DNA from: a virus
Lineage: Duplodnaviria; Caudoviricetes
Direction: 5' to 3' (one strand)
DNA length: 64,000 bases
Virus record (IMG/VR): IMGVR_UViG_3300031418_000003
Under the pieces are notes generated by a model. It saw only the letters and a program-made list of their open reading frames with translations. It searched no databases and was not told where the DNA came from. Shown here piece by piece: positions 42,479 through 51,067 of this stretch (its first letter is position 1; the number at the start of each line of letters is the position of its first letter). A program made the position numbers and the translations under genes.

Positions 42479-42918
42479 TCATTTTCTCCAACCACATTGG
42501 TGCGATCGTTAATCTCACGGACAACTTCTTCACTGGAGATTTCTTTCCAGATATCGAGATTAACAACACGAGGATTACTGATAACAAGCAATGGCGGCTT
42601 GCCCGGTAAATGGTCAGGATAGTTCTTCATGACATAGGCATAACCCAGCCAATGAAGATTATCCAGTTGATCGCGAAGATCCTTAAGTTTATCGCATCGC
42701 CCAGACACCTGATAATTGTCCATCAGTTCTTCAAGGCTTTTGTCGATCGGTTTAAGTAGTTTGATATTCGCTTCATCATTGTTGTTAATATCAAAACCAA
42801 CCGCCTCTTCATCCACAGATAACTCTGAATGACCGACAAAAAGTGCACTGATAGGACGCCCTCTTCCTGCACCGTGAGTTACGACGATACCTAAGATAGC
42901 TTCGTATTCTGTTTCCAT
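42475..42918 (-). CDS. Hypothetical protein
   Basis: 147-aa ORF. Confidence 0.65.
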   Translation of the reverse strand: METEYEAILGIVVTHGAGRGRPISALFVGHSELSVDEEAVGFDINNNDEANIKLLKPIDKSLEELMDNYQVSGRCDKLKDLRDQLDNLHWLGYAYVMKNYPDHLPGKPPLLVISNPRVVNLDIWKEISSEEVVREINDRTNVVGENE

Positions 42919-42927
42919 GCCAAATCC

Positions 42928-43710
42928 TTACAATCTATTTATGTTGAAAGCCATAAGGTTGTTATTCGCAACCCAGACCATGTTTTTGATCGACGCTTCA
43001 GTTCCTTCGGTAATGTCCCCTTTGGCCTTCATGTTTTCGATGAAAGCAACCAGGTCCTTTTGCCAGTTAGGTTTGAGGCGTTGACTAAATTTACTGGTAT
43101 GCATCTGGCCGTCTGTTGAACAGTTCAGATCAAAACAAATGTACCCAGTGGTGATGTGATAATACCCATAGATCAGTAAATGATTATCAGGGATCTCCGT
43201 TCTGACTCCACCGAGCACTACCATATCAGACGTGGCGTGAATGGCGTTCGTCGACCTGAAAGTAAGTTCATTTGTAATGTTGCCCACAATACCCGCACCT
43301 TGCACATAGGTCTGTTCAAATCGACCTTCAAAGTCACGACGACAATATTTAAGCGGACACCCGTTACAGTCATTACTGGCGAACTTATTCCAGTCGATGA
43401 TGGGATATAAGTTACCATTGAACAAGAAGTCTGTTCTGGCCGAACCCAATCCCTTTACCATTTTCTCGTAGACATCTTCGGGAAGATGATGCGTCCAGAT
43501 ACTTTTATCTTTGGTTGTAGCGAGTCGGACATCGGTGCGGATAATATAAACCCCACCAATACGTTCCCAAAGTTTAGCTGTCAGTACCCTGGGCGTTAAT
43601 GGGATTTCAACTTGATGGGCATAATCTCCACCACCTCGAATCAAGACACGAAACCACTGACCGGTTTCATAATCCTGTCTCAACCAATCCTGCATCGCAT
43701 TAGTAGTCAC
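42928..43710 (-). CDS. Hypothetical protein
   Basis: 260-aa ORF containing CNGCPLKYC. Confidence 0.65.
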   Translation of the reverse strand: MTTNAMQDWLRQDYETGQWFRVLIRGGGDYAHQVEIPLTPRVLTAKLWERIGGVYIIRTDVRLATTKDKSIWTHHLPEDVYEKMVKGLGSARTDFLFNGNLYPIIDWNKFASNDCNGCPLKYCRRDFEGRFEQTYVQGAGIVGNITNELTFRSTNAIHATSDMVVLGGVRTEIPDNHLLIYGYYHITTGYICFDLNCSTDGQMHTSKFSQRLKPNWQKDLVAFIENMKAKGDITEGTEASIKNMVWVANNNLMAFNINRL

Positions 43711-44104
43711 GATCTTTCCCCTCTAACAGATCACGCGCAAACCGAACACAATCTTTGGCTTGCACAATAAACCCGGAGGGCATATGGATGTGGATAAGTC
43801 GATGATCAAAGTTTAGATGCATGAGTGTCTCATACATGTGACCTGAAGTGCTTTCCATGAGACGACGATTAACAGAGTTAGGTAGTGCGGGGAAGTACAG
43901 AACTTCCTGTGGTTGATTTTGATGGAAGTACTTAACGAAGTTCAACTTCTTAATGTCGTCCATCGTTTTTGGGAAACCTGCAATATCGGGAGCAGGGGTC
44001 AGGATAAGTTCGTTCTGGTAAGGAATATCTTTACCATCAGAGCGCAGTAATACACGAGACCATACCTGAGTGATCTTGTTGTATTTGAATTTGTATTGAT
44101 CCAT
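43700..44104 (-). CDS. Hypothetical protein
   Basis: 134-aa ORF preceded by the TTACTTTAGAGAAA leader. Confidence 0.65.
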   Translation of the reverse strand: MDQYKFKYNKITQVWSRVLLRSDGKDIPYQNELILTPAPDIAGFPKTMDDIKKLNFVKYFHQNQPQEVLYFPALPNSVNRRLMESTSGHMYETLMHLNFDHRLIHIHMPSGFIVQAKDCVRFARDLLEGKDRDY

Positions 44105-44134
44105 AAATATTTTCTCTAAAGTAAGAGGGGTTAC

Positions 44135-44278
44135 TCACCCCATTTTGATAATGATAGTTGTCGTACTAGGGAATAAACTGTCGATATAAGGGGGAATGGT
44201 GAATAACATGATGAAAAGAATAAAGAATATCAAAAATAACAACTTCTCTTCACGGATGAATTCAAAGAACTCTTTCAT
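44135..44278 (-). CDS. 47-aa single-TM membrane protein (below ORF-track cutoff)
   Basis: Manual translation MKEFFEFIREEKLLFLIFFILFIMLFTIPPYIDSLFPSTTTIIIKMG; GGAGA RBS; fills the gap in the operon. Confidence 0.7.
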   Translation of the reverse strand: MKEFFEFIREEKLLFLIFFILFIMLFTIPPYIDSLFPSTTTIIIKMG

Positions 44279-44281
44279 TAC

Positions 44282-44539
44282 TTATCTCCAGCGAGGTTCA
44301 TCGTCACAAGTGTACAGATACTCAGTATTTGTGCCGTGTTGTGTTACAGGTACCTTGCCGACCAAAATAGTACGAGTATATTCCACCTCCCGAGTTTTAT
44401 CAGTTTTAACACAGTGTTGTTTTTTCATCTCTTTGCTGTCAGCAATTCCCCCTGCAATAAAAGCAATGCAGAATACGATAAAGAACCACGCCAAAGAGCC
44501 GATAAAGATTCCGTCTTTGAAACGAAGTATCTCTAACAT
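44282..44539 (-). CDS. Small membrane-anchored protein with two-Cys exported domain
   Basis: N-terminal TM, then CVKTD...YTCDD. Confidence 0.65.
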   Translation of the reverse strand: MLEILRFKDGIFIGSLAWFFIVFCIAFIAGGIADSKEMKKQHCVKTDKTREVEYTRTILVGKVPVTQHGTNTEYLYTCDDEPRWR

Positions 44540-44937
44540 TATTCCTCCACGTAGTCAGGTTCACATGCTGGATGCCAGAACCATTTACGAGAAATGAACT
44601 GGCCTTTGTATACATGTTGACGAGTAAAATCACTCAAGTTAATTCTGAGACGGTGGGTCAGTGGTGAATTAATGAACTCACGACGGATAGCACGCTTGAT
44701 GATATCGATCTCTGGTTTTGCATCAGGATACTCTTCCAGGAACAAATCCAACCAGGCAACCACATCGGCACGATCACCCCAGATGGTGCAAGTGTGTTGA
44801 CCGCCGTTGTTAGGATAACCTGACATATCAATCAAACGCGTCAGGGTATCTTGACCATAATACATCTGACGAAGTGCAAATGGCATGTGGCTGGTTTTAT
44901 GATGTTCAGGTGCGCTTAATACAACGGTGACTTTCAT
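44539..44937 (-). CDS. Hypothetical protein
   Basis: 132-aa coupled ORF. Confidence 0.62.
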   Translation of the reverse strand: MKVTVVLSAPEHHKTSHMPFALRQMYYGQDTLTRLIDMSGYPNNGGQHTCTIWGDRADVVAWLDLFLEEYPDAKPEIDIIKRAIRREFINSPLTHRLRINLSDFTRQHVYKGQFISRKWFWHPACEPDYVEE

Positions 44938-44940
44938 CGT

Positions 44941-45396
44941 TTATTCCTTATAGAAACGATCACGAATGGCATTGACAGCAGAATCAGGATCCAGCATAAT
45001 TTCAGCAAGCTTGCCCTGACCGTATTTGATAACTGAAAGAGATTCAATATCAGCACCACTCAATAGGTCTGTCATGTGACCTACCTGATAAATGATGTTA
45101 CCATTGCGAATCATCAAGTATTCACTGCTGACCGTATCGTTATCGGTAACAAGATCAGAAACCATTTTCACCGGCATCTTTAATTCGATATCCGGTTTCT
45201 GTCCAATCTTACCGAACAGATATGTGATGGTTGTTTTCTTTTGGCAGACCAACACTTCTTTCTTGTGGTCAACCGTTTGTGCGTAATATAACACTTCGTT
45301 GTTCTTGCAACGATTACCAACGTTATCCAGTGGATCACCGTTAGCGTAAGAAACGAATGATGTGGCTAACAGAAATAATAAAATAAACTTTTTCAT
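44941..45396 (-). CDS. Exported (Sec signal peptide) periplasmic protein
   Basis: MKKFILLFLLATSFVSYA/NG signal; two Cys in the mature part. Confidence 0.7.
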   Translation of the reverse strand: MKKFILLFLLATSFVSYANGDPLDNVGNRCKNNEVLYYAQTVDHKKEVLVCQKKTTITYLFGKIGQKPDIELKMPVKMVSDLVTDNDTVSSEYLMIRNGNIIYQVGHMTDLLSGADIESLSVIKYGQGKLAEIMLDPDSAVNAIRDRFYKE

Positions 45397-45404
45397 GGAA
45401 CCTC

Positions 45405-45695
45405 TTATACGGTGATAAGTTTTGAACTAATAGCAGCTTGTTGAAGAATAGCGTCGTTCATCTCCAACATCTTTTTCGCCAGATCGTAAATCTTCATACC
45501 CTCAGAAGTAGGGTTCTTATTGCGACCAGTACGTTCGAACAGGGGAAGACCCAATTGTTCTTCCAACCGTTGCATCTGCTGGGATAATGCAGACTGGGTA
45601 CGTTCGGCAACTTCTGCAGCAGAAGCAAAGTTACCCAGATCAACAATAAGAACAAAACTACGCAACAGGGCAGTATCAATATTAACAAATGGCAT
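45405..45695 (-). CDS. HTH-only LysR-family protein, LrhA/HexA/PecT-like DNA-binding domain
   Basis: LLRSFV..DLGNFASAA...RTQSALSQQMQRLEEQLG..LFERTGRNK..T..G; 96 aa; no effector-binding domain. Confidence 0.88.
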   Translation of the reverse strand: MPFVNIDTALLRSFVLIVDLGNFASAAEVAERTQSALSQQMQRLEEQLGLPLFERTGRNKNPTSEGMKIYDLAKKMLEMNDAILQQAAISSKLITV

Positions 45696-45704
45696 TACAT
45701 TACC

Positions 45705-46289
45705 TCAATTTAGGGATTTTAAAATTTCAGGACTGAAGTCGTAAATAGGGCGACTGGTCTCAGACTGATATCCGCATGTCTCTAACTTTTGGAGAATAGC
45801 GGTATTCAATTTATCAACAAGCAGTGCCTTCTCTGTTTTATCGAATATCCTTTTATCTGGATTATCCGATAGCCATTGATTAGTTCGATTAACAGCATAT
45901 CCTTCTGATGAGCTATAGTCGGAAGGAAGGGGAATAAGTTTATCAAAGTTGAAATATTCACTCATTTCTTCTGACATCGAGAGATAAACGCTACTGTATT
46001 TACCTGGCTTTATTTCTAAGCTCTTTAAGCATTCAAGAGGAATATCTTTATATTTTTGGTCATCCCTGATTTTGTTCTGGAGTTCGTCGGTTAATAGAAT
46101 AGTAAGTTGTTCGCCAGTAAACAACATACCGTCTTTATTACGGATAAGAGTGTGTGCAAGGTCGCCCAGCGAATTTACAACAGCAGCGCTATGTTCACGT
46201 AAAAATATAGGATGGGTGATGTTGTAAACCTCATCCCTTTCCTGCTGAGTTAATGGTTCGGAATAATAACCAATAATTGATTTACTCAT
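45705..46289 (-). CDS. Hypothetical protein, family A paralog (directly upstream of LysR-HTH 2)
   Basis: MSKSIIGYYSEPLTQQERDEV resembles the N-termini of 47015-47491 and 48008-48508. Confidence 0.65.
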   Translation of the reverse strand: MSKSIIGYYSEPLTQQERDEVYNITHPIFLREHSAAVVNSLGDLAHTLIRNKDGMLFTGEQLTILLTDELQNKIRDDQKYKDIPLECLKSLEIKPGKYSSVYLSMSEEMSEYFNFDKLIPLPSDYSSSEGYAVNRTNQWLSDNPDKRIFDKTEKALLVDKLNTAILQKLETCGYQSETSRPIYDFSPEILKSLN

Positions 46290-46296
46290 AACAACC

Positions 46297-46740
46297 TCAG
46301 TTAAACAGGTACTCTAATTTAGAAGGACGATACTGACCTTTAGAAACGTGATTCAACTTAAAGTTATAGCGGTTCACGAAGATGCGGCTATAATGATGAA
46401 TGAGTTCTTCGGAGACAGTAACAACAGGACGATCATGTTCGAGTAATTCCAACATGGAATCAATCAGCCGAACACCAATACCATTTCCCTGGTAATCAGG
46501 GTGAACCCGCACACAACGTAGCTTGGTTTCATCAGTGGTTGATTTACCCAATGCCACACCTGCGATATGCTGACCATCACGGGCAATCAACAGCTTATCA
46601 TTCCCAGTCATCAGACCAGGAACGACTTGATTGACATACCAATATGAAACATCAGGGTAGAACTGATCCAGGGTCGCAATAAACGGCAACACTTGAAACG
46701 CTGCGGTCATTGAAGTTTCGGTGTGAATAGCAACACTCAT
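46297..46740 (-). CDS. GNAT-family N-acetyltransferase
   Basis: IAGVALGK, KLRCVRVHPDYQGNGIGVRL (motif A), PVVTVSEE, LEYLFN. Confidence 0.85.
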   Translation of the reverse strand: MSVAIHTETSMTAAFQVLPFIATLDQFYPDVSYWYVNQVVPGLMTGNDKLLIARDGQHIAGVALGKSTTDETKLRCVRVHPDYQGNGIGVRLIDSMLELLEHDRPVVTVSEELIHHYSRIFVNRYNFKLNHVSKGQYRPSKLEYLFN

Positions 46741-47018
46741 TTGATATCTCGGGTTACAGTGATGAGTTCATCGTTCATCTGAATAAGAACTTTGGCTTTC
46801 TCGTACACAACTTTCCCAAGATCCGTGAGGGCGCCTTGACGATGAAAACGTTGCATCAGAGGACCACCAATAATCTCTTCCAGATTCGTTATATGTGTGG
46901 CCAGCGAGTGTTGGCTTTTGCCAAGAATAAGAGCCGCCCCCTTATAGGAGCGACCCTCAACAACGGCCACAAATGTTCTCAAATACTTAATTGAGAGATT
47001 TGCGAAGTTGGTTTTCAT
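46737..47018 (-). CDS. HTH-only LysR-family protein (divergent)
   Basis: YLRTFVAVVEGRSYKGAALILGKSQHSLATHITNLEEIIG..L...LTDLG; 93 aa; no effector-binding domain. Confidence 0.82.
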   Translation of the reverse strand: MKTNFANLSIKYLRTFVAVVEGRSYKGAALILGKSQHSLATHITNLEEIIGGPLMQRFHRQGALTDLGKVVYEKAKVLIQMNDELITVTRDIK

Positions 47019-47491
47019 TCTTCCAGCGGTTCCTGTTCCAGGTATTCATTAACTTCTTTTACCAGGTCAGAATCTTCGATTGGGAACACCCAGGTGACAG
47101 TTTCCAGATTGAAGTCAGCTTTGGTAATAATCTGTTTTACCGTATCTGAGTATCTCAGGATATAGAGACCGTCGGTACTGACGGAGACATTGATGTCTTC
47201 TGGACGGATATCTGGACCTAGTCGAATCGCATATCGCTTGTACCATTCATCTGCGACATATTTTAGATGTTTATCCAGCCCATCGATGCCGCCAGGGTAT
47301 GTACTGCCATCGAATACCGGGCTAACACCATTAAGGAAACCGGAGACGTTATTGAGCAGCTCTACCTGAAGTTCTTTGGCGATAGCGTTACGCTCTTTTT
47401 GCGCGTAAGCGGGTTTCAAGACTTCTTGAATCTCTGTACGTTCTTCATCGGTGATGGGAAGAGAATAATGAACGATTGTTTTCTTAGTCAT
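47015..47491 (-). CDS. Hypothetical protein, family A paralog (directly upstream of LysR-HTH 1)
   Basis: MTKKTIVHYSLPITDEERTEI; ATGA-coupled to the LysR-HTH gene. Confidence 0.65.
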   Translation of the reverse strand: MTKKTIVHYSLPITDEERTEIQEVLKPAYAQKERNAIAKELQVELLNNVSGFLNGVSPVFDGSTYPGGIDGLDKHLKYVADEWYKRYAIRLGPDIRPEDINVSVSTDGLYILRYSDTVKQIITKADFNLETVTWVFPIEDSDLVKEVNEYLEQEPLEE

Positions 47492-47585
47492 GATAACATT
47501 CCTTATTACGGGTTGATGGAACTGACATTTATTCTAAACATGTCAACGGTTGTTGATTTTTATTTCTTAAAGATAAGATGAAAGT

Positions 47586-48005
47586 TTATTGCACTTCGTT
47601 ATTGAAAAAGCCTTTCCATTCACCCGTCGGATTCACACAATCAAAATCTTTCATTTGATTAATGTACAATGCAACAGCAGCAGGAGTTGCGATGGTACCA
47701 GACCAATCACTGCGGTCTAATACAGCGGCACCCACATTGCGAATAATAGCATGCCCGTTGTCAGCCATATAAACACAACCAACCAATACACCATTGACTT
47801 CTTCTACGCCAGTGGAGAGATTAACGTCATAACCACTACCATACCCGTCTTGGAGTAGAGGATTACCGAAAGCGTCTTTGATCCTTTCCAGTAACGCCTC
47901 CAATGAGAAGTCACGACGATCCACTTTAGCAATAATGCCAACAGTATCTTCCTGACCTTCGTTAGGTTCCAGGTCTTTAATTAAGAAAGCAAGTTCAATA
48001 GCCAT
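47586..48005 (-). CDS. Hypothetical protein
   Basis: 139-aa ORF. Confidence 0.65.
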   Translation of the reverse strand: MAIELAFLIKDLEPNEGQEDTVGIIAKVDRRDFSLEALLERIKDAFGNPLLQDGYGSGYDVNLSTGVEEVNGVLVGCVYMADNGHAIIRNVGAAVLDRSDWSGTIATPAAVALYINQMKDFDCVNPTGEWKGFFNNEVQ

Positions 48006-48007
48006 GA

Positions 48008-48508
48008 TTAATCCTTAAAGCGGTGAATTGGGAAATTACTTTTCTTTAGCAGTATACTGTTAGCCATAGATATGGCCTTAACAATATCATCGGTCCCGTT
48101 AAATGTACGAGCGGGAACACAGTAGAGACTTTTATCCCGATCAAATACACGCTGAATATCAGGAGAGTATTCAAACGTGAAAGTAAGTGTTCCGACAACT
48201 TCAACTTTGAAAACACCTCCAGAAGCCAATTCGACGGGACTGGTGCGCGCGCTGAGGAATTGACTCTTCCAATTATGGACTCCCTCGTGAATCAACTGCG
48301 ACAATTTCGAGTGGTATGAATCAGGGTTAAGCGTACTCCTGATTGCATAAAACTTTTCTTTAGCTTCTTCAAGATAAAGGCTCAGAACACGTACCGATTT
48401 GTCAACAGCTTCAGTAATATCGTTGTTGTCGATGATCTCGTAGATTTCGCGCCTCTGCTCGTCGTTCTCAACAGGAAGTAAAAACAACTCAATATTTTTC
48501 TTAGCCAT
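48008..48508 (-). CDS. Hypothetical protein, family A paralog
   Basis: MAKKNIELFLLPVENDEQRREIYEI; FEYSPDIQRVFDRD...P. Confidence 0.6.
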   Translation of the reverse strand: MAKKNIELFLLPVENDEQRREIYEIIDNNDITEAVDKSVRVLSLYLEEAKEKFYAIRSTLNPDSYHSKLSQLIHEGVHNWKSQFLSARTSPVELASGGVFKVEVVGTLTFTFEYSPDIQRVFDRDKSLYCVPARTFNGTDDIVKAISMANSILLKKSNFPIHRFKD

Positions 48509-48512
48509 GGTA

Positions 48513-49124
48513 TCATCCCTTCACAATAGGTAAATTTTTAAGGTCAGCTCGACGATGCTGGGTGATGTTGATTTCTTTATTACCTTCACGAGTTTTGATA
48601 AGATAACGACCATCGCGGTAATCGGTGATAATGATCCCATCGATCATGCCGTGTTTACCCACATACAGTGCCTGTTCTGGATGAACACATTTATCGCTAC
48701 TCTGATAAACACTGGCTTGTTTCTTGGTCAGTCCTACTTGTTCCATAAAGATTTTTGTATCGCGCTCCAGTGCGTATTTAAACCGATCCATGGCATCTTT
48801 CAGTACATCCAGATTACCATCGAAGGTACTCGTTCTTGCGTGGTACAAGAACGTGGCATTTGGGTAAGACAAACGGACAAAATCACTGTTCTGAGGAAAT
48901 AAGGCACAACTGGACGCACAGTACCCACGGGATACAATTGTAATGGGGACATCAAGAGCAATGAGTGAGTCAAGAATTGCCTGTTTGTAAGACACTGCTC
49001 CTCCCGGACCCATCATGTAAACTAAAGTTGGTTTACGTTCGAGGGAGTCAATACGATTAAAGAATCTTGGGCCGGTGTCTTTGTTAAACCCACCCATTAA
49101 ATCTAATACGTTATAATCAGGCAT
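48513..49124 (-). CDS. clpP: ClpP-like serine protease
   Basis: GPGG, YCASS (Ser), FLYHAR (His), SDKCVHPEQAL (Asp), GMIDGII; first gene after a promoter motif. Confidence 0.8.
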   Translation of the reverse strand: MPDYNVLDLMGGFNKDTGPRFFNRIDSLERKPTLVYMMGPGGAVSYKQAILDSLIALDVPITIVSRGYCASSCALFPQNSDFVRLSYPNATFLYHARTSTFDGNLDVLKDAMDRFKYALERDTKIFMEQVGLTKKQASVYQSSDKCVHPEQALYVGKHGMIDGIIITDYRDGRYLIKTREGNKEINITQHRRADLKNLPIVKG

Positions 49125-49164
49125 TAAAAATTTCCTAAAGTAAATAAATGGATTTGTACAAGTA

Positions 49165-49182
49165 GATAATGTCAGCCTGAAA
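49165..49182 (-). promoter_or_regulatory. Putative early promoter motif
   Basis: Minus strand TTTCAGGCTGACATTATC followed by tacttgtaca. Confidence 0.6.
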
Positions 49183-49367
49183 AGATTTACACCTGAAAAA
49201 CAAAAAGGATGATTACTACGTAATCGCTAATTATACAAATCCTCCCTACCCTCACCTTCGGTAACATCCTAAGTAAATAATATAACTCTTCCTAGAAAAT
49301 AAATTATTAGTTGAAGTGTAATCATTAGCTAACCAAATTTAACTTACACCACAGGACTTCTATCACG

Positions 49368-50078
49368 ATGGCTTACACTACTTTTGACACCAACAAAAAC
49401 GATCAATTAAAAGAACACATGTTCTTCGGTCAGAACGTTAACGTTTCCCGCTATGACCAGCAGAAGTATGAGATCTTTGAAAAGCTGATTGAAAAACAAC
49501 TCTCTTTCTTCTGGCGTCCGGAAGAAGTCGATGTCTCTAAAGACCGCATCGATTACCAGAACCTGCCTGATCATGAAAAGCACATCTTCATCTCTAACCT
49601 GAAATACCAGACCCTGCTGGATTCCGTACAGGGTCGTGGTCCTAACGTGTGTCTGCTTCCGATCGTCTCCCTGCCAGAGCTGGAAACCTGGATTGAAACC
49701 TGGGCGTTCTCTGAAACGATTCACTCACGCTCCTACACGCACATCATCCGCAACATCGTCAATGATCCGTCGATCGTCTTTGATGACATTGTCGGTAATG
49801 AACACATCGTGGCGCGTGCTGCCGAAGTCAGTAAGTATTATGATGAACTGATCAACCTGGTTCAGCTGTGGCAGCAGTTCGGTGAAGGTAATCACGTCTT
49901 CAACGGTGAGAAGGTTCGTATCACTCTGCGGGATTTGAAGAAGAAACTTTATGTCTGCCTGCATTCCGTTAATGCCCTGGAAGCCATTCGTTTCTACGTA
50001 TCGTTCGCATGCTCATTCGCCTTTGCTGAACGTTCACTGATGGAAGGCAATGCCAAGATCATCAAACTGATCGCCCGT
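49368..50078 (+). CDS. nrdB: Ribonucleotide reductase class Ia beta subunit, exon 1
   Basis: [42 protein letters not shown]; ends at KLIAR (CGT). Confidence 0.96.
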
Positions 50079-51067
50079 TAAATCTAGCGGCCTTAGGTAG
50101 TGATGCCTATTGAATAACACTGTTAACTCAGGGGAAGTCTCACGTAGACAATCCTGATCTATTTAACTTCTACTTCTCCATGTTATGCATGATACTTTTA
50201 ACTGGAGATGAATTGATGCACAATTATTATCCTGTGTGGATATCTGAGCATTATTTAGTCTACCCTGATGGAAGAGTATGGTCTGAACAAAACCAGATCT
50301 TCTTAAAGAAAACATTGAGTAAATTTTCCGGTTATTATATATTTGGAAAGAATGTTACTAAAGTAGTTGGTGGGTCTCCGACTCTCCATCGTATTTTAGC
50401 TCATTGTTTTAAAGGTGGGATCCCGGAAGGAATGGTTATAGACCATCTTGATGGAAATAAACTGAATAACGATCTTGATAACATTGAGATAATTACTCAC
50501 ACTGAAAACACAAAACGTGCTTATGAGAAAGGATTGGCCAAAGGTAAGAAAGGTCATGAGAATTCGGGCGCTAAGTTATCAGAGGTGGAAGCGATTAGGG
50601 TATTTGAGTGTCTGCAAAGAGGATGGTGCAATAATTCCATCGCTAAGCAGTTCAAACTTCATCCGAGATATGTTTCATTATTGAGACACGGTAAACGTTG
50701 GAAGCATCTTCATGACTTCTACGGTCCGTTCGGTGAATCTATTCCTATCGATAAGTTTGTTGACAAATACGTCATATACTTAAAGATGAAAGATACTCAT
50801 ACCAATAAAGAAATCGCTAAAGCTGCACAAGTTGACCAAAGCACAGTTTCACGCTGGCGCAGTGGCCATACAAGAAGTTAAGTAGTGCAACGATCATCGA
50901 AACCACATCTTAATGGATGGAAGGGAGTAGAGTAGGGCACAAGCCAATGGTGCTCGAAAAGCAGTGGGTCTCAGTAATGAGATCGTGATATGATCTGGTC
51001 TGCATGGCGACATGTAGCAGTTCTTAAGAGAACGGGGTAGGTCTTGCGAACCTATTCGAACATAACG
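50079..51067 (+). mobile_element. Group I self-splicing intron (989 nt) in nrdB
   Basis: Exon 1 ends in U and the intron ends in G (ACG/GAC). Splicing restores IAR/DEALH and a 376-aa NrdB. P4-like tcagggga/aatcctga and P7-like gatcat/atgatc elements are visible. Confidence 0.9.
50216..50881 (+). CDS. Intron-encoded HNH homing endonuclease with C-terminal HTH domains
   Basis: LHRILAHCF, IDHLDGNKLNNDLDNIE...EN; GHENSGAKLSE and two HTH-like segments; GGAGA RBS. Confidence 0.9.
   Translation: MHNYYPVWISEHYLVYPDGRVWSEQNQIFLKKTLSKFSGYYIFGKNVTKVVGGSPTLHRILAHCFKGGIPEGMVIDHLDGNKLNNDLDNIEIITHTENTKRAYEKGLAKGKKGHENSGAKLSEVEAIRVFECLQRGWCNNSIAKQFKLHPRYVSLLRHGKRWKHLHDFYGPFGESIPIDKFVDKYVIYLKMKDTHTNKEIAKAAQVDQSTVSRWRSGHTRS

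Follow-up and report, generated by a model that had tools for sequence, protein, structure and literature searches.

Isolated winged helix-turn-helix (HTH) heads of LysR-type transcriptional regulators (LTTRs) are known as laboratory truncations of 87-96 aa, including BenM_DBD (4ihs/3m1e), CbnR_DBD (5xxp) and the DNA-binding domains (DBDs) of AceR, YhaJ, MetR and CysB. BenM_DBD (4ihs) and CbnR_DBD (5xxp), of 87-93 aa, were crystallised on operator DNA and bind DNA alone; as a rule, a head on its own has a weaker hold on DNA than an LTTR tetramer. In LrhA of E. coli/Salmonella (7yhj) and in its orthologs PigU (Serratia), HexA (Pectobacterium) and PecT (Dickeya), the winged HTH is followed by a linker helix, and in LrhA by an effector-binding domain (EBD) that allows tetramers to form; flagella, RcsA/capsule, RpoS turnover and CRISPR-Cas expression all belong to the regulon of LrhA. 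Three other kinds of protein are relevant here: VqmA-Phi of vibriophage VP882 is a full-length, ligand-sensing phage homolog of a host transcription factor; the H-NST proteins, encoded by pathogenicity islands, are natural short forms of H-NS and antagonise it, presumably by interfering with the complete protein of the host; and the Aca proteins are anti-CRISPR-associated HTH autorepressors, none of which, to our knowledge, is a LysR-type head. Gp53 of PhiPA1019 is reported to be a phage transcription factor that reprograms the host (PMC13650114). LrhA/PigU have been reported to control CRISPR-Cas, flagella and rcsA (PMC10810281, PMC12968389), and of nine LrhA DNA-binding residues that were mutated (F28, R37, T38, Q39, S40, Q44, R48, R63, and K65), seven gave impaired activity (PMC12968389). 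Our literature search found no prior description of phage LysR/LrhA heads like the two reported below; the initial annotation of this DNA likewise knew of none for the module that it proposed.

We analysed a 64,000-nucleotide stretch (the window) of the 266-kb genome of a jumbo phage, from a group of giant, leaf-dwelling, phiKZ-like phages of lytic type, in which one operon carries two stand-alone LysR-type heads, HTH1 and HTH2. The reading frames named in the initial annotation are all present where it had placed them, and the whole operon lies on the minus strand. It runs from the ClpP-like gene (48513..49124; 203 aa), the first gene after a conserved intergenic region (49125..49367) that separates the operon from the divergent nrdB, through A3 (48008..48508; 166 aa), the uncharacterised gene X (47586..48005; 139 aa), A2 (47015..47491; 158 aa), HTH2 (46737..47018; 93 aa), a GNAT acetyltransferase gene (46297..46740; 147 aa), A1 (45705..46289; 194 aa), and HTH1 (45405..45695; 96 aa), to a gene directly downstream of HTH1 (44941..45396) for a 151-aa protein with an N-terminal signal-peptide-like segment. 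The start and stop codons of HTH2 overlap A2 and the GNAT gene, respectively, by 4 nt.

Residues 10-66 of HTH1 and 11-68 of HTH2 match the Pfam family HTH_1 (PF00126) above the gathering score (E 2e-19 and 3e-12), and in neither protein does Pfam find the LysR substrate/effector-binding domain (PF03466). Both proteins end 10-20 residues past the linker helix, and no effector-domain remnant was found in the 266-kb genome, the LrhA model matching only through its positions 6-90; the claim that the two genes encode a LysR HTH plus linker helix and nothing more is thus upheld. In the AlphaFold2 model of HTH1 (pLDDT 94), three helices and a wing formed by a beta-hairpin are followed by a long helix (residues 64-95) with pLDDT above 90 over most of its length; the model superposes on the crystallised DBD fragments of BenM and CbnR with an rmsd of 1.3-1.5 A and a TM score of 0.80-0.90. 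HTH1 therefore shares size and fold with the engineered DBDs, but differs from them in being a natural gene product under purifying selection; and it differs from LrhA in having no EBD, so that neither an EBD-EBD interface nor a tetramer can form, in its diverged linker, and in being the gene of a lytic-type jumbo phage that belongs to a separate clade. HTH2 is a paralog of HTH1 (33% identity, E 1e-16) with a rewritten recognition helix, and an N-D motif in the linker is present in every phage HTH member aligned.

The likeness to LrhA/HexA/PecT noted in the initial annotation proved to be real. The best NCBIfam family for HTH1 is LrhA (NF011673; 83 bits vs 66 for the runner-up), and so is the best PDB match (7yhj; 73 bits vs 43 for the runner-up); residues 2-81 align without gaps to Salmonella LrhA at 53% identity. 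The 83 bits come from a head only and lie below the curated LrhA equivalog cut-off of 530 bits, which is set for the full-length protein (the Salmonella reference protein scores 600 bits on this model). For HTH2, LrhA ranks only sixth on NCBIfam (37 bits). The phage makes LTTR heads devoid of an effector domain, as had been proposed, and one of them is LrhA-type. The likeness is concentrated in the recognition helix, where 12 of 13 residues of HTH1 are identical to LrhA, compared with 6 of 22 in the linker helix. All nine mutated LrhA DNA-contact residues are identical in HTH1, and eight or nine of them in each of the ten phage HTH1 orthologs checked; HTH2 keeps two. The complete nine-residue signature is confined to 21 of the 149 closest non-phage representatives, namely enterobacterial LrhAs and their closest kin. 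For comparison, a Cupriavidus genome with 134 LTTR candidates contains one LrhA-like gene (83 bits, 54% identity), the next candidate reaching 56 bits (40%).

HTH1 is present as a version of 96-105 aa in all 14 related jumbo-phage loci (for example, gp203 of AH04, an isolated phage whose host is Erwinia billingiae), and HTH2 in 8 of the 14, with lengths of 93-113 aa; none of the 14 has a full-length LysR gene at the locus, and the short form is kept across loci diverged to 53% identity. The dN/dS values are 0.06-0.22 for HTH1 and 0.04-0.15 for HTH2, which is 88-98% identical among close relatives. Judged by these comparisons, both are functional genes under purifying selection and not recent truncations. 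In a quick maximum-likelihood tree of the DBD (90 columns, deeper forks unresolved), the phage HTH1 and HTH2 sequences form one clade (SH-aLRT 90) that is separate from the enterobacterial LrhA clade (97) and not nested within it; the phage heads also share about 50% identity with LrhA-like LTTRs from a wide range of proteobacteria, Cupriavidus and Variovorax among them. The capture must therefore be old, from a donor that may not have been the present host. HTH2, which groups with HTH1 in the phage clade, goes back to an older duplication within the phage lineage.

The reading we put forward, whose chances we judge to be about even, is that HTH1 is an effector-blind dimer competing with host LrhA for its boxes. 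Two copies of HTH1 would pair by their linker helices, in the way known from isolated LTTR DBDs, and would read the same DNA boxes as host LrhA (also called PigU, HexA or PecT). Having no EBD, HTH1 could not assemble into the tetramer with which LTTRs span two sites and touch RNA polymerase, and so would be a constitutive, signal-blind occupant of LrhA sites, blocking LrhA-dependent activation and imitating LrhA repression where simple occupancy suffices. By this pattern of conserved residues, the phage probably occupies the sites on the host chromosome at which LrhA controls motility, capsule and CRISPR. HTH2 has kept the scaffold and the linker helix with altered DNA-reading residues, and these changes suggest another target, or a role as partner of HTH1. 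An action on the host is plausible for HTH1 also from the gene content, because the phage genome encodes phiKZ-type split RNA polymerase subunits, which makes it improbable that phage promoters are activated by an LTTR head. HTH1 would then resemble VqmA-Phi and Gp53, as a phage copy of a host-type regulator predicted to be able to act on host promoters; unlike VqmA-Phi, it is LysR-type and has lost the sensing domain altogether.

A narrower form of this occupancy, which we consider unlikely, is that HTH1 serves as a transcription-level anti-defence factor, locking host defence genes controlled by LrhA/PigU in a state that favours the phage. It might stand in for PigU where PigU represses type III/I-F CRISPR-Cas, as in Serratia, or keep LrhA from activating cas genes, as in E. 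coli. Reportedly, it is mainly the RNA-targeting type III systems that can harm nucleus-forming jumbo phages. If HTH1 does act in this way, it would be a case of immune evasion through regulator mimicry.

The main rival, which we consider less likely than host occupancy, is that HTH1 and HTH2 descend from an LrhA-like head and regulate phage genes, either as Aca-like autorepressors or timing switches of an accessory (possibly anti-defence) operon, or acting on the divergent nrd operon. HTH1 has in common with Aca its small size, its HTH and its conservation in an operon of short accessory genes with a rapid turnover: as around Aca regulators, the HTH genes persist amid small genes that vary between close relatives, which in the 14 loci are family A, X, those for 114-aa, 121-aa and 158-aa proteins, and the ClpP-like gene. 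The age of the phage clade and its separation from host LrhA fit this explanation as well, and so does the region between the operon and nrdB, which averages 88% column identity over six phages, AH04 among them, contains invariant stretches of about 75 nt, and holds a unique 15-bp palindrome (49211-49225; 6-nt arms GATTAC/GTAATC, 3-nt spacer). However, the half-site centres of the palindrome are about 9 bp apart, compared with about 11 bp in LTTR boxes; the 266-kb genome has a single copy of it, and no box of the LrhA type was recognised on the phage. The phiKZ-type RNA polymerases of the phage also argue against it, since we know of no LTTR that activates such polymerases, and regulation of phage genes does not require that the exact nine-residue LrhA signature be kept in both lineages. 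Searches of Pfam, PHROGs and NCBIfam found no known anti-defence family among the neighbours, and neither an acr gene nor an operator was identified. Several general observations count against host occupancy: any regulator that works, on phage DNA too, should have a conserved DNA-reading helix; isolated heads tend to bind less strongly than tetramers; the phage clade is old and lies outside enterobacterial LrhA; and the operon stands in the classic LTTR position, divergent from nrd across a conserved intergenic region.

Site occupancy had been offered in the initial annotation together with a second mechanism, the poisoning of host LTTR tetramers, for which we see little probability. In this mechanism, HTH1 would form heterodimers with host LrhA through the linker helix and act as a dominant negative, the mixed oligomers being unable to tetramerise or to bind paired sites. 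The linker helix needed for this is present and confidently modelled, and among five LrhA interface residues tested, two are identical in HTH1 (R17 = R12, N85 = N80) and one is conservatively replaced (R79 to K74); but the other two, D14 and F84, are replaced by A9 and M79, the helix as a whole retains only the 6 of 22 identities given above, and within the phage clade it is conserved in a distinct form of its own. Selection thus appears to act on DNA reading and not on the LrhA interface, and because the recognition helix is nearly identical to that of LrhA and the linker, the dimer interface, is not, the sequence pattern favours occupancy of sites over poisoning. In this respect HTH1 is the reverse of H-NST: each is a global regulator cut short in nature and carried horizontally, but H-NST keeps the oligomerisation part without the DNA-binding part, whereas HTH1 keeps the DNA-binding head with a diverged dimer helix.

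The proposal that a family A gene and an HTH gene constitute a two-gene functional module (partner or antidote), duplicated as a unit, is not supported by the comparison of loci, and we now consider it very unlikely. Within the window, each HTH gene does lie directly after a family A gene, A1/A2 and HTH1/HTH2 are both pairs of paralogs, and the 4-nt overlap of A2 and HTH2 recurs in the five close loci having both genes (L004-L007 and L088). Among the 14 loci, however, A1 is found between GNAT and HTH1 in only three (the window, L005, and L006): in L004 and L007 the A1-type genes adjoin the ClpP-like gene, and elsewhere the slot upstream of HTH1 is filled by a 114-aa protein gene, GNAT, or other small genes. 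A2, whose conserved position is upstream of HTH2 or of GNAT, is present without HTH2 in AH04 and L003; L092 and L097 have HTH1 alone, with family A undetectable in L092; and L091 has the order HTH2-GNAT-HTH1 with no detectable A member. In the tree, the HTH2 of L091 falls among those of the other loci, so that the HTH genes seem to have duplicated before family A arose, which further weakens the case for joint duplication.

Family A itself is clade-specific, and of its three suggested members two are secure. A1 has no match in Pfam, PHROG or NCBIfam; it aligns with A2 pairwise over the N-terminal 56 aa only (E 2e-6), orthologs bridge the two over 128-139 aa (E 5e-7), and profile-profile comparison (hhalign) gives 96% probability (E 2e-9, 142 columns), so A1 and A2 are, by these alignments, clearly homologous. 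For A3 the evidence is suggestive of a distant member: its match to the A2 profile in hhalign has a probability of 51-77% (E 2e-5 to 1.5e-4, about 145 columns), the N-terminal motif M-x-K-K-x-I ... P ... E-I is common with family A, and the profile comparison with A1 is not significant. A2 has orthologs at 43-56% identity in AH04 (gp201), L003-L007 and L088; its AlphaFold2 model (pLDDT 82) is mainly helical, without a fold match in PDB or AFDB, and in BFVD matches uncharacterised phage proteins only.

The gene between the two HTH genes is, as first annotated, a GNAT (PF00583, E 3e-8, above the cut-off; also PF13673 and PF13508; phrog_13728, E 1e-49). It is 84-95% identical in all related loci, and its homologs in 201phi2-1, RSL2, AH06, Kc263, and Proteus phage 10 (44-65% identical), phages absent from the HTH1 tblastn matches in the phage collection, mark it as a widespread phiKZ-like phage gene and not a part of the module. 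X has no family match (Pfam, PHROG, NCBIfam), its sole homolog found being a 138-aa gene in L007. The ClpP-like gene (PF00574, E 2e-8) is present in the window, L004, L091 and L092, and missing from the corresponding position in AH04, L005-L007 and L088. Orthologs of the 151-aa protein (53-92% identical) follow HTH1 immediately in L004, L005, L088, L091 and L092; in L003 the ortholog is two genes further downstream. The operon carries family A, X and the ClpP-like gene as accessories that vary between loci, not as obligate partners.

That the short genes are functionless remnants of recently truncated full-length LysR genes has next to no chance of being right: short LrhA-like database entries are often fragments or frameshifts (for example, a 117-aa fragment in Candidatus Regiella), but the constant lengths in 14 loci (96-105 and 93-113 aa) with dN/dS of 0.04-0.22, and the lack of effector-domain similarity anywhere in the genome, speak against it, the flanking genes abut or overlap the HTH genes and so leave no room for a truncated-LysR remnant, and a recent truncation is ruled out by the conservation data.

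In the Enterobacterales, LrhA/PigU/HexA/PecT is a master switch that governs motility, capsule/exopolysaccharide, virulence enzymes, RpoS levels and, according to recent work, CRISPR-Cas expression. If HTH1 does compete with LrhA for its sites, this would be a compact and testable case of a virus rewiring a host regulon by competition for transcription-factor sites, and HTH1 would be the mirror image of the truncated antagonists of the H-NST type. Should HTH1 act on phage genes instead, no earlier LysR-derived regulator would be on record for a phiKZ-like phage with RNA polymerases of its own. As a natural "DBD-only" LTTR, HTH1 offers a means of asking what an LTTR head can do without its tetramerising sensor domain.

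HTH1 (96 aa; 45405-45695, minus strand) and HTH2 (93 aa; 46737-47018, minus strand) consist of a LysR-type winged helix-turn-helix (HTH) head and a linker helix. Pfam HTH_1 is matched above threshold in both and is their sole Pfam match, and the match to PHROG 3736, a family of full-length LysR proteins, is confined to about the first 80 positions; the two proteins are 33% identical. In the HTH1 model (pLDDT 94), three helices and a two-stranded wing are joined by a single long helix that runs to the C-terminus; the model superposes at 1.3-1.5 A on the crystallised DNA-binding fragments of BenM and CbnR bound to DNA. No effector-domain remnant was found in the whole phage genome (the LrhA family model matches positions 6-90 only), and the genes beside HTH1 and HTH2 abut or overlap them, leaving no space for one, so the initial annotation was right to describe both as HTH-only. 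Head-only orthologs of the same or nearly the same length are present in 14 loci (HTH1, 96-105 aa; HTH2, 93-113 aa): the window, Erwinia phage AH04 (where gp203 is the HTH1 ortholog), the related phage loci L003-L007 and L088-L090, and the more distant L091, L092, L097, and L099, in which HTH1 is down to 53-57% identity. In pairwise comparisons, HTH1 has a dN/dS of 0.06-0.22 and HTH2 one of 0.04-0.15. A recent nonsense truncation is ruled out by the near-constant lengths in the 14 loci, the low dN/dS, and the lack of any remnant.

By sequence comparison HTH1 is LrhA-like, as had been proposed: LrhA, a host LysR-type regulator (LTTR) with orthologs PigU (Serratia), HexA, and PecT, is both its top NCBIfam family (83 bits vs 66 for the runner-up) and its top solved structure (7yhj, 73 bits vs 43). 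HTH1 shares 53% identity, across 80 ungapped residues, with a Salmonella protein scoring 600 bits against the LrhA equivalog model; the recognition helix of HTH1 matches that of LrhA at 12/13 positions, and the linker helix at 6/22. In a 2026 study (PMC12968389), nine residues of LrhA (F28, R37, T38, Q39, S40, Q44, R48, R63, and K65) were linked to Pcas binding and mutated, and activity was lost or impaired in seven of the mutants. At a fixed offset of five, HTH1 has the identical residue at all nine positions, and eight or nine are identical across ten phage HTH1 orthologs, while HTH2 keeps two. This signature is not generic: it is complete in only 21 of the 149 nearest non-phage cluster representatives, made up of the LrhAs of enterobacteria (at 72-99% identity to Salmonella LrhA) and of the proteins that come next in likeness to LrhA. 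One LrhA-like gene stands apart (83 bits vs 56) among the 134 LTTR candidates of a Cupriavidus genome. A class-level search of 400 genomes with the LrhA model gave two matches.

A quick maximum-likelihood tree places the phage HTH proteins in a clade of their own (SH-aLRT 90), apart from that of the enterobacterial LrhAs (97); this phage clade also takes in HTH2 and a few further short proteins. We infer that the LrhA-like head was captured long ago, because the phage clade is separate in the tree and HTH1 is ~50% identical to LrhA-like regulators of many proteobacteria, not of enterobacteria alone (our pattern-based genome scan relied on exact-word matching and is biased towards Burkholderiales). 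HTH2 is a duplicate that arose inside the phage lineage, its DNA-reading residues being altered afterwards. No relative of HTH1 came up in a scan of IMG/VR. On 11 contigs there is a 91-aa LrhA-like protein consisting of the head alone (P0029; L098:4001-4276), which groups in the phage clade; the one context examined differs from the phage loci and looks bacterial, with YetF/DUF421 and porin genes among the neighbours. LrhA-like head-only proteins may exist on other mobile elements too. Candidatus Regiella insecticola encodes a 117-aa N-terminal LrhA fragment (P0025) whose identity to Salmonella LrhA is 78% across 100 aa; in this reduced symbiont genome it may be either a gene in decay or a further natural case of a head-only protein.

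The phage genome around the window (266,753 bp, with direct terminal repeats) encodes split RNA polymerase subunits of the phiKZ type: tblastn placed homologs of 201phi2-1 gp107 and gp129 (phiKZ-type split RNA polymerase beta/beta' pieces) at G000:C1:213760-215130 and 200557-202356. The 201phi2-1 chimallin (nuclear shell protein), used as a tblastn query, had no match at E < 1e-3. The phage DNA occurs in phyllosphere and plant metagenomes, and the only named relative is AH04 (Meadowvirus), with 81% nucleotide identity confined to the GNAT gene, which encodes a 147-aa acetyltransferase. The two HTH genes lie in a compact minus-strand string, whose upstream 243-bp region is common with the divergent nrdB. 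The string opens with a ClpP-like gene (48513-49124), followed by A3 (48008-48508), X (a 139-aa protein; 47586-48005), A2 (47015-47491), HTH2, GNAT (46297-46740), A1 (45705-46289), HTH1 as the eighth gene, a 151-aa protein with a signal-peptide-like N-terminus (44941-45396), and more small genes. A sigma-70 promoter scan of the operon gave fewer sites than in shuffled controls and no clear promoter.

The initial annotation read these genes as a duplicated module of a family A protein (A1, A2, or A3) and an HTH protein, which comparative synteny contradicts. HTH1 is present in all 14 loci, and the gene directly upstream of it is A1 in only three (the window, L005, and L006); elsewhere it is a 114-aa protein (L003, L004, L089, and L090), GNAT (AH04, L007, L088, L091, and L099), or another small gene (L092 and L097). 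In L004 and L007, A1-type genes adjoin either the ClpP-like gene or the intergenic region. A2 precedes HTH2 wherever both are present, but in AH04 and L003 it stands without HTH2, directly before GNAT; its place upstream of GNAT is taken in L089 by a different, 158-aa protein, and L091 has the order HTH2-GNAT-HTH1 with an unrelated 141-aa gene upstream. Complex prediction for A2 and HTH2 scored 0.01 (against a mark of 0.32), too low to inform either way. The 158-aa protein, which at its N-terminus is similar to the glycine-rich loop of protein kinases (G-x-G-x-x-x-x-V-Y), was seen in relatives (L004:2175-2651, L005:950-1426, L088:7513-7989, and L089:62-538) and is absent from the window. The 151-aa protein downstream of HTH1 is conserved (53-92% identical), is the immediate neighbour in most carrier loci, and is linked to HTH1 more tightly than any family A gene.

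Within family A, homology between the A1-type (194-209 aa) and A2-type (157-164 aa) proteins extends along the entire A2 length (BLAST bridges, E 5e-7; hhalign 96%, E 2e-9), whereas profile comparison aligned A3-type proteins with A2 over ~145 columns at 51-77% probability and not at all with A1; we lean slightly towards counting A3 as a member. A family A profile search of 5.8 billion proteins returned 14 clusters, all of 158-209 aa without Pfam domains, several from related loci or 143-266 kb contigs. Fold searches with the A2 model (pLDDT 82, largely helical) gave nothing above background, either in PDB, by Foldseek and VIA-align wide, or in AFDB clusters; in BFVD its matches were all uncharacterised phage proteins, and an Atlas feature search gave no match.

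Conservation at the locus is highest for GNAT, which keeps 84-95% identity throughout the loci even with neighbours down to 41-57% (in L091, for example, 86%, against 41% for the ClpP-like gene and 57% for HTH1). Its homologs are found in 201phi2-1, RSL2, AH06, Kc263, and other jumbo phages (44-65% identical), none of which is among the HTH1 tblastn matches, and also in RSF1, Proteus phage 10, and Sinorhizobium phage Phosso. Being widespread in phages without HTH genes, GNAT was rejected as part of a module; it has the appearance of a near-core acetyltransferase in phiKZ-like phages, and is an older phage gene, which the HTH genes later came to flank. The stretch from nrdB to thymidylate synthase (42900-49124 in the window; also L003-L007, L088-L092, L097, and L099) is a hypervariable island of small genes, in which the ClpP-like, A1/A3, X, and 114-, 121-, 68-, and 56-aa genes are variably present among close relatives, a pattern typical of accessory or counter-defence regions. 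nrdB itself is split in the window (49368-51067), in L091 (1794-3891), where an HNH_3 gene occupies the gap, and in L092 (3335-4738; 237+137 aa), where the gap has no called gene; it is intact (376 aa) in AH04, L088, and L097, consistent with a mobile intron polymorphic within the clade.

HTH1 keeps the DNA-reading surface of LrhA, has a diverged dimer helix, and lacks the tetramerisation domain; an isolated LTTR head with its linker helix is the very fragment employed in structural work as a dimer able to bind DNA. Read most economically, HTH1 would act as a homodimer competing for LrhA boxes on the host chromosome. An LTTR activator acting on phage promoters would be of little use to a phage that has RNA polymerases of its own. 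The main rival suggested is a repressor directed at the phage itself, in line with the divergent-operon position, the variable accessory-island surroundings, and the intergenic region between operon and nrdB (49125-49367). Nucleotide identity across six phages, AH04 being one of them, is 88% in this region, and stretches of ~75 nt are invariant, a conservation far above that of the flanking proteins (down to 43-80% identity in these phages). The region might carry divergent promoters of the phage, an operator, or a leader RNA. It also contains an AT-rich TATATTATTTAC motif and a palindrome unique in the genome (GATTAC, 3-nt spacer, GTAATC; 49211-49225), which we rejected as an LTTR box, its spacing being wrong. 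Poisoning of host LrhA subunits through the linker helix, the other action first envisaged, is disfavoured by the divergence of that helix (6/22).

As a competitor for host LrhA boxes, the HTH1 dimer would occupy them independently of any signal and would build no tetramer, the form that LrhA requires for activation. The targets of LrhA-family regulators include flhDC, rcsA, and secondary metabolism; in addition, PigU represses Serratia CRISPR-Cas (PMC10810281), and LrhA activates that of E. coli (PMC12968389). Literature searches yielded work on LrhA and PigU, but we found no description of a phage-borne or natural LysR protein reduced to its DNA-binding domain, or of a head-only LrhA; AH04 gp203 carries no annotation beyond "HTH transcriptional regulator". 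HTH1 would be a variant both of phage copies of host regulators and of naturally truncated regulator antagonists.
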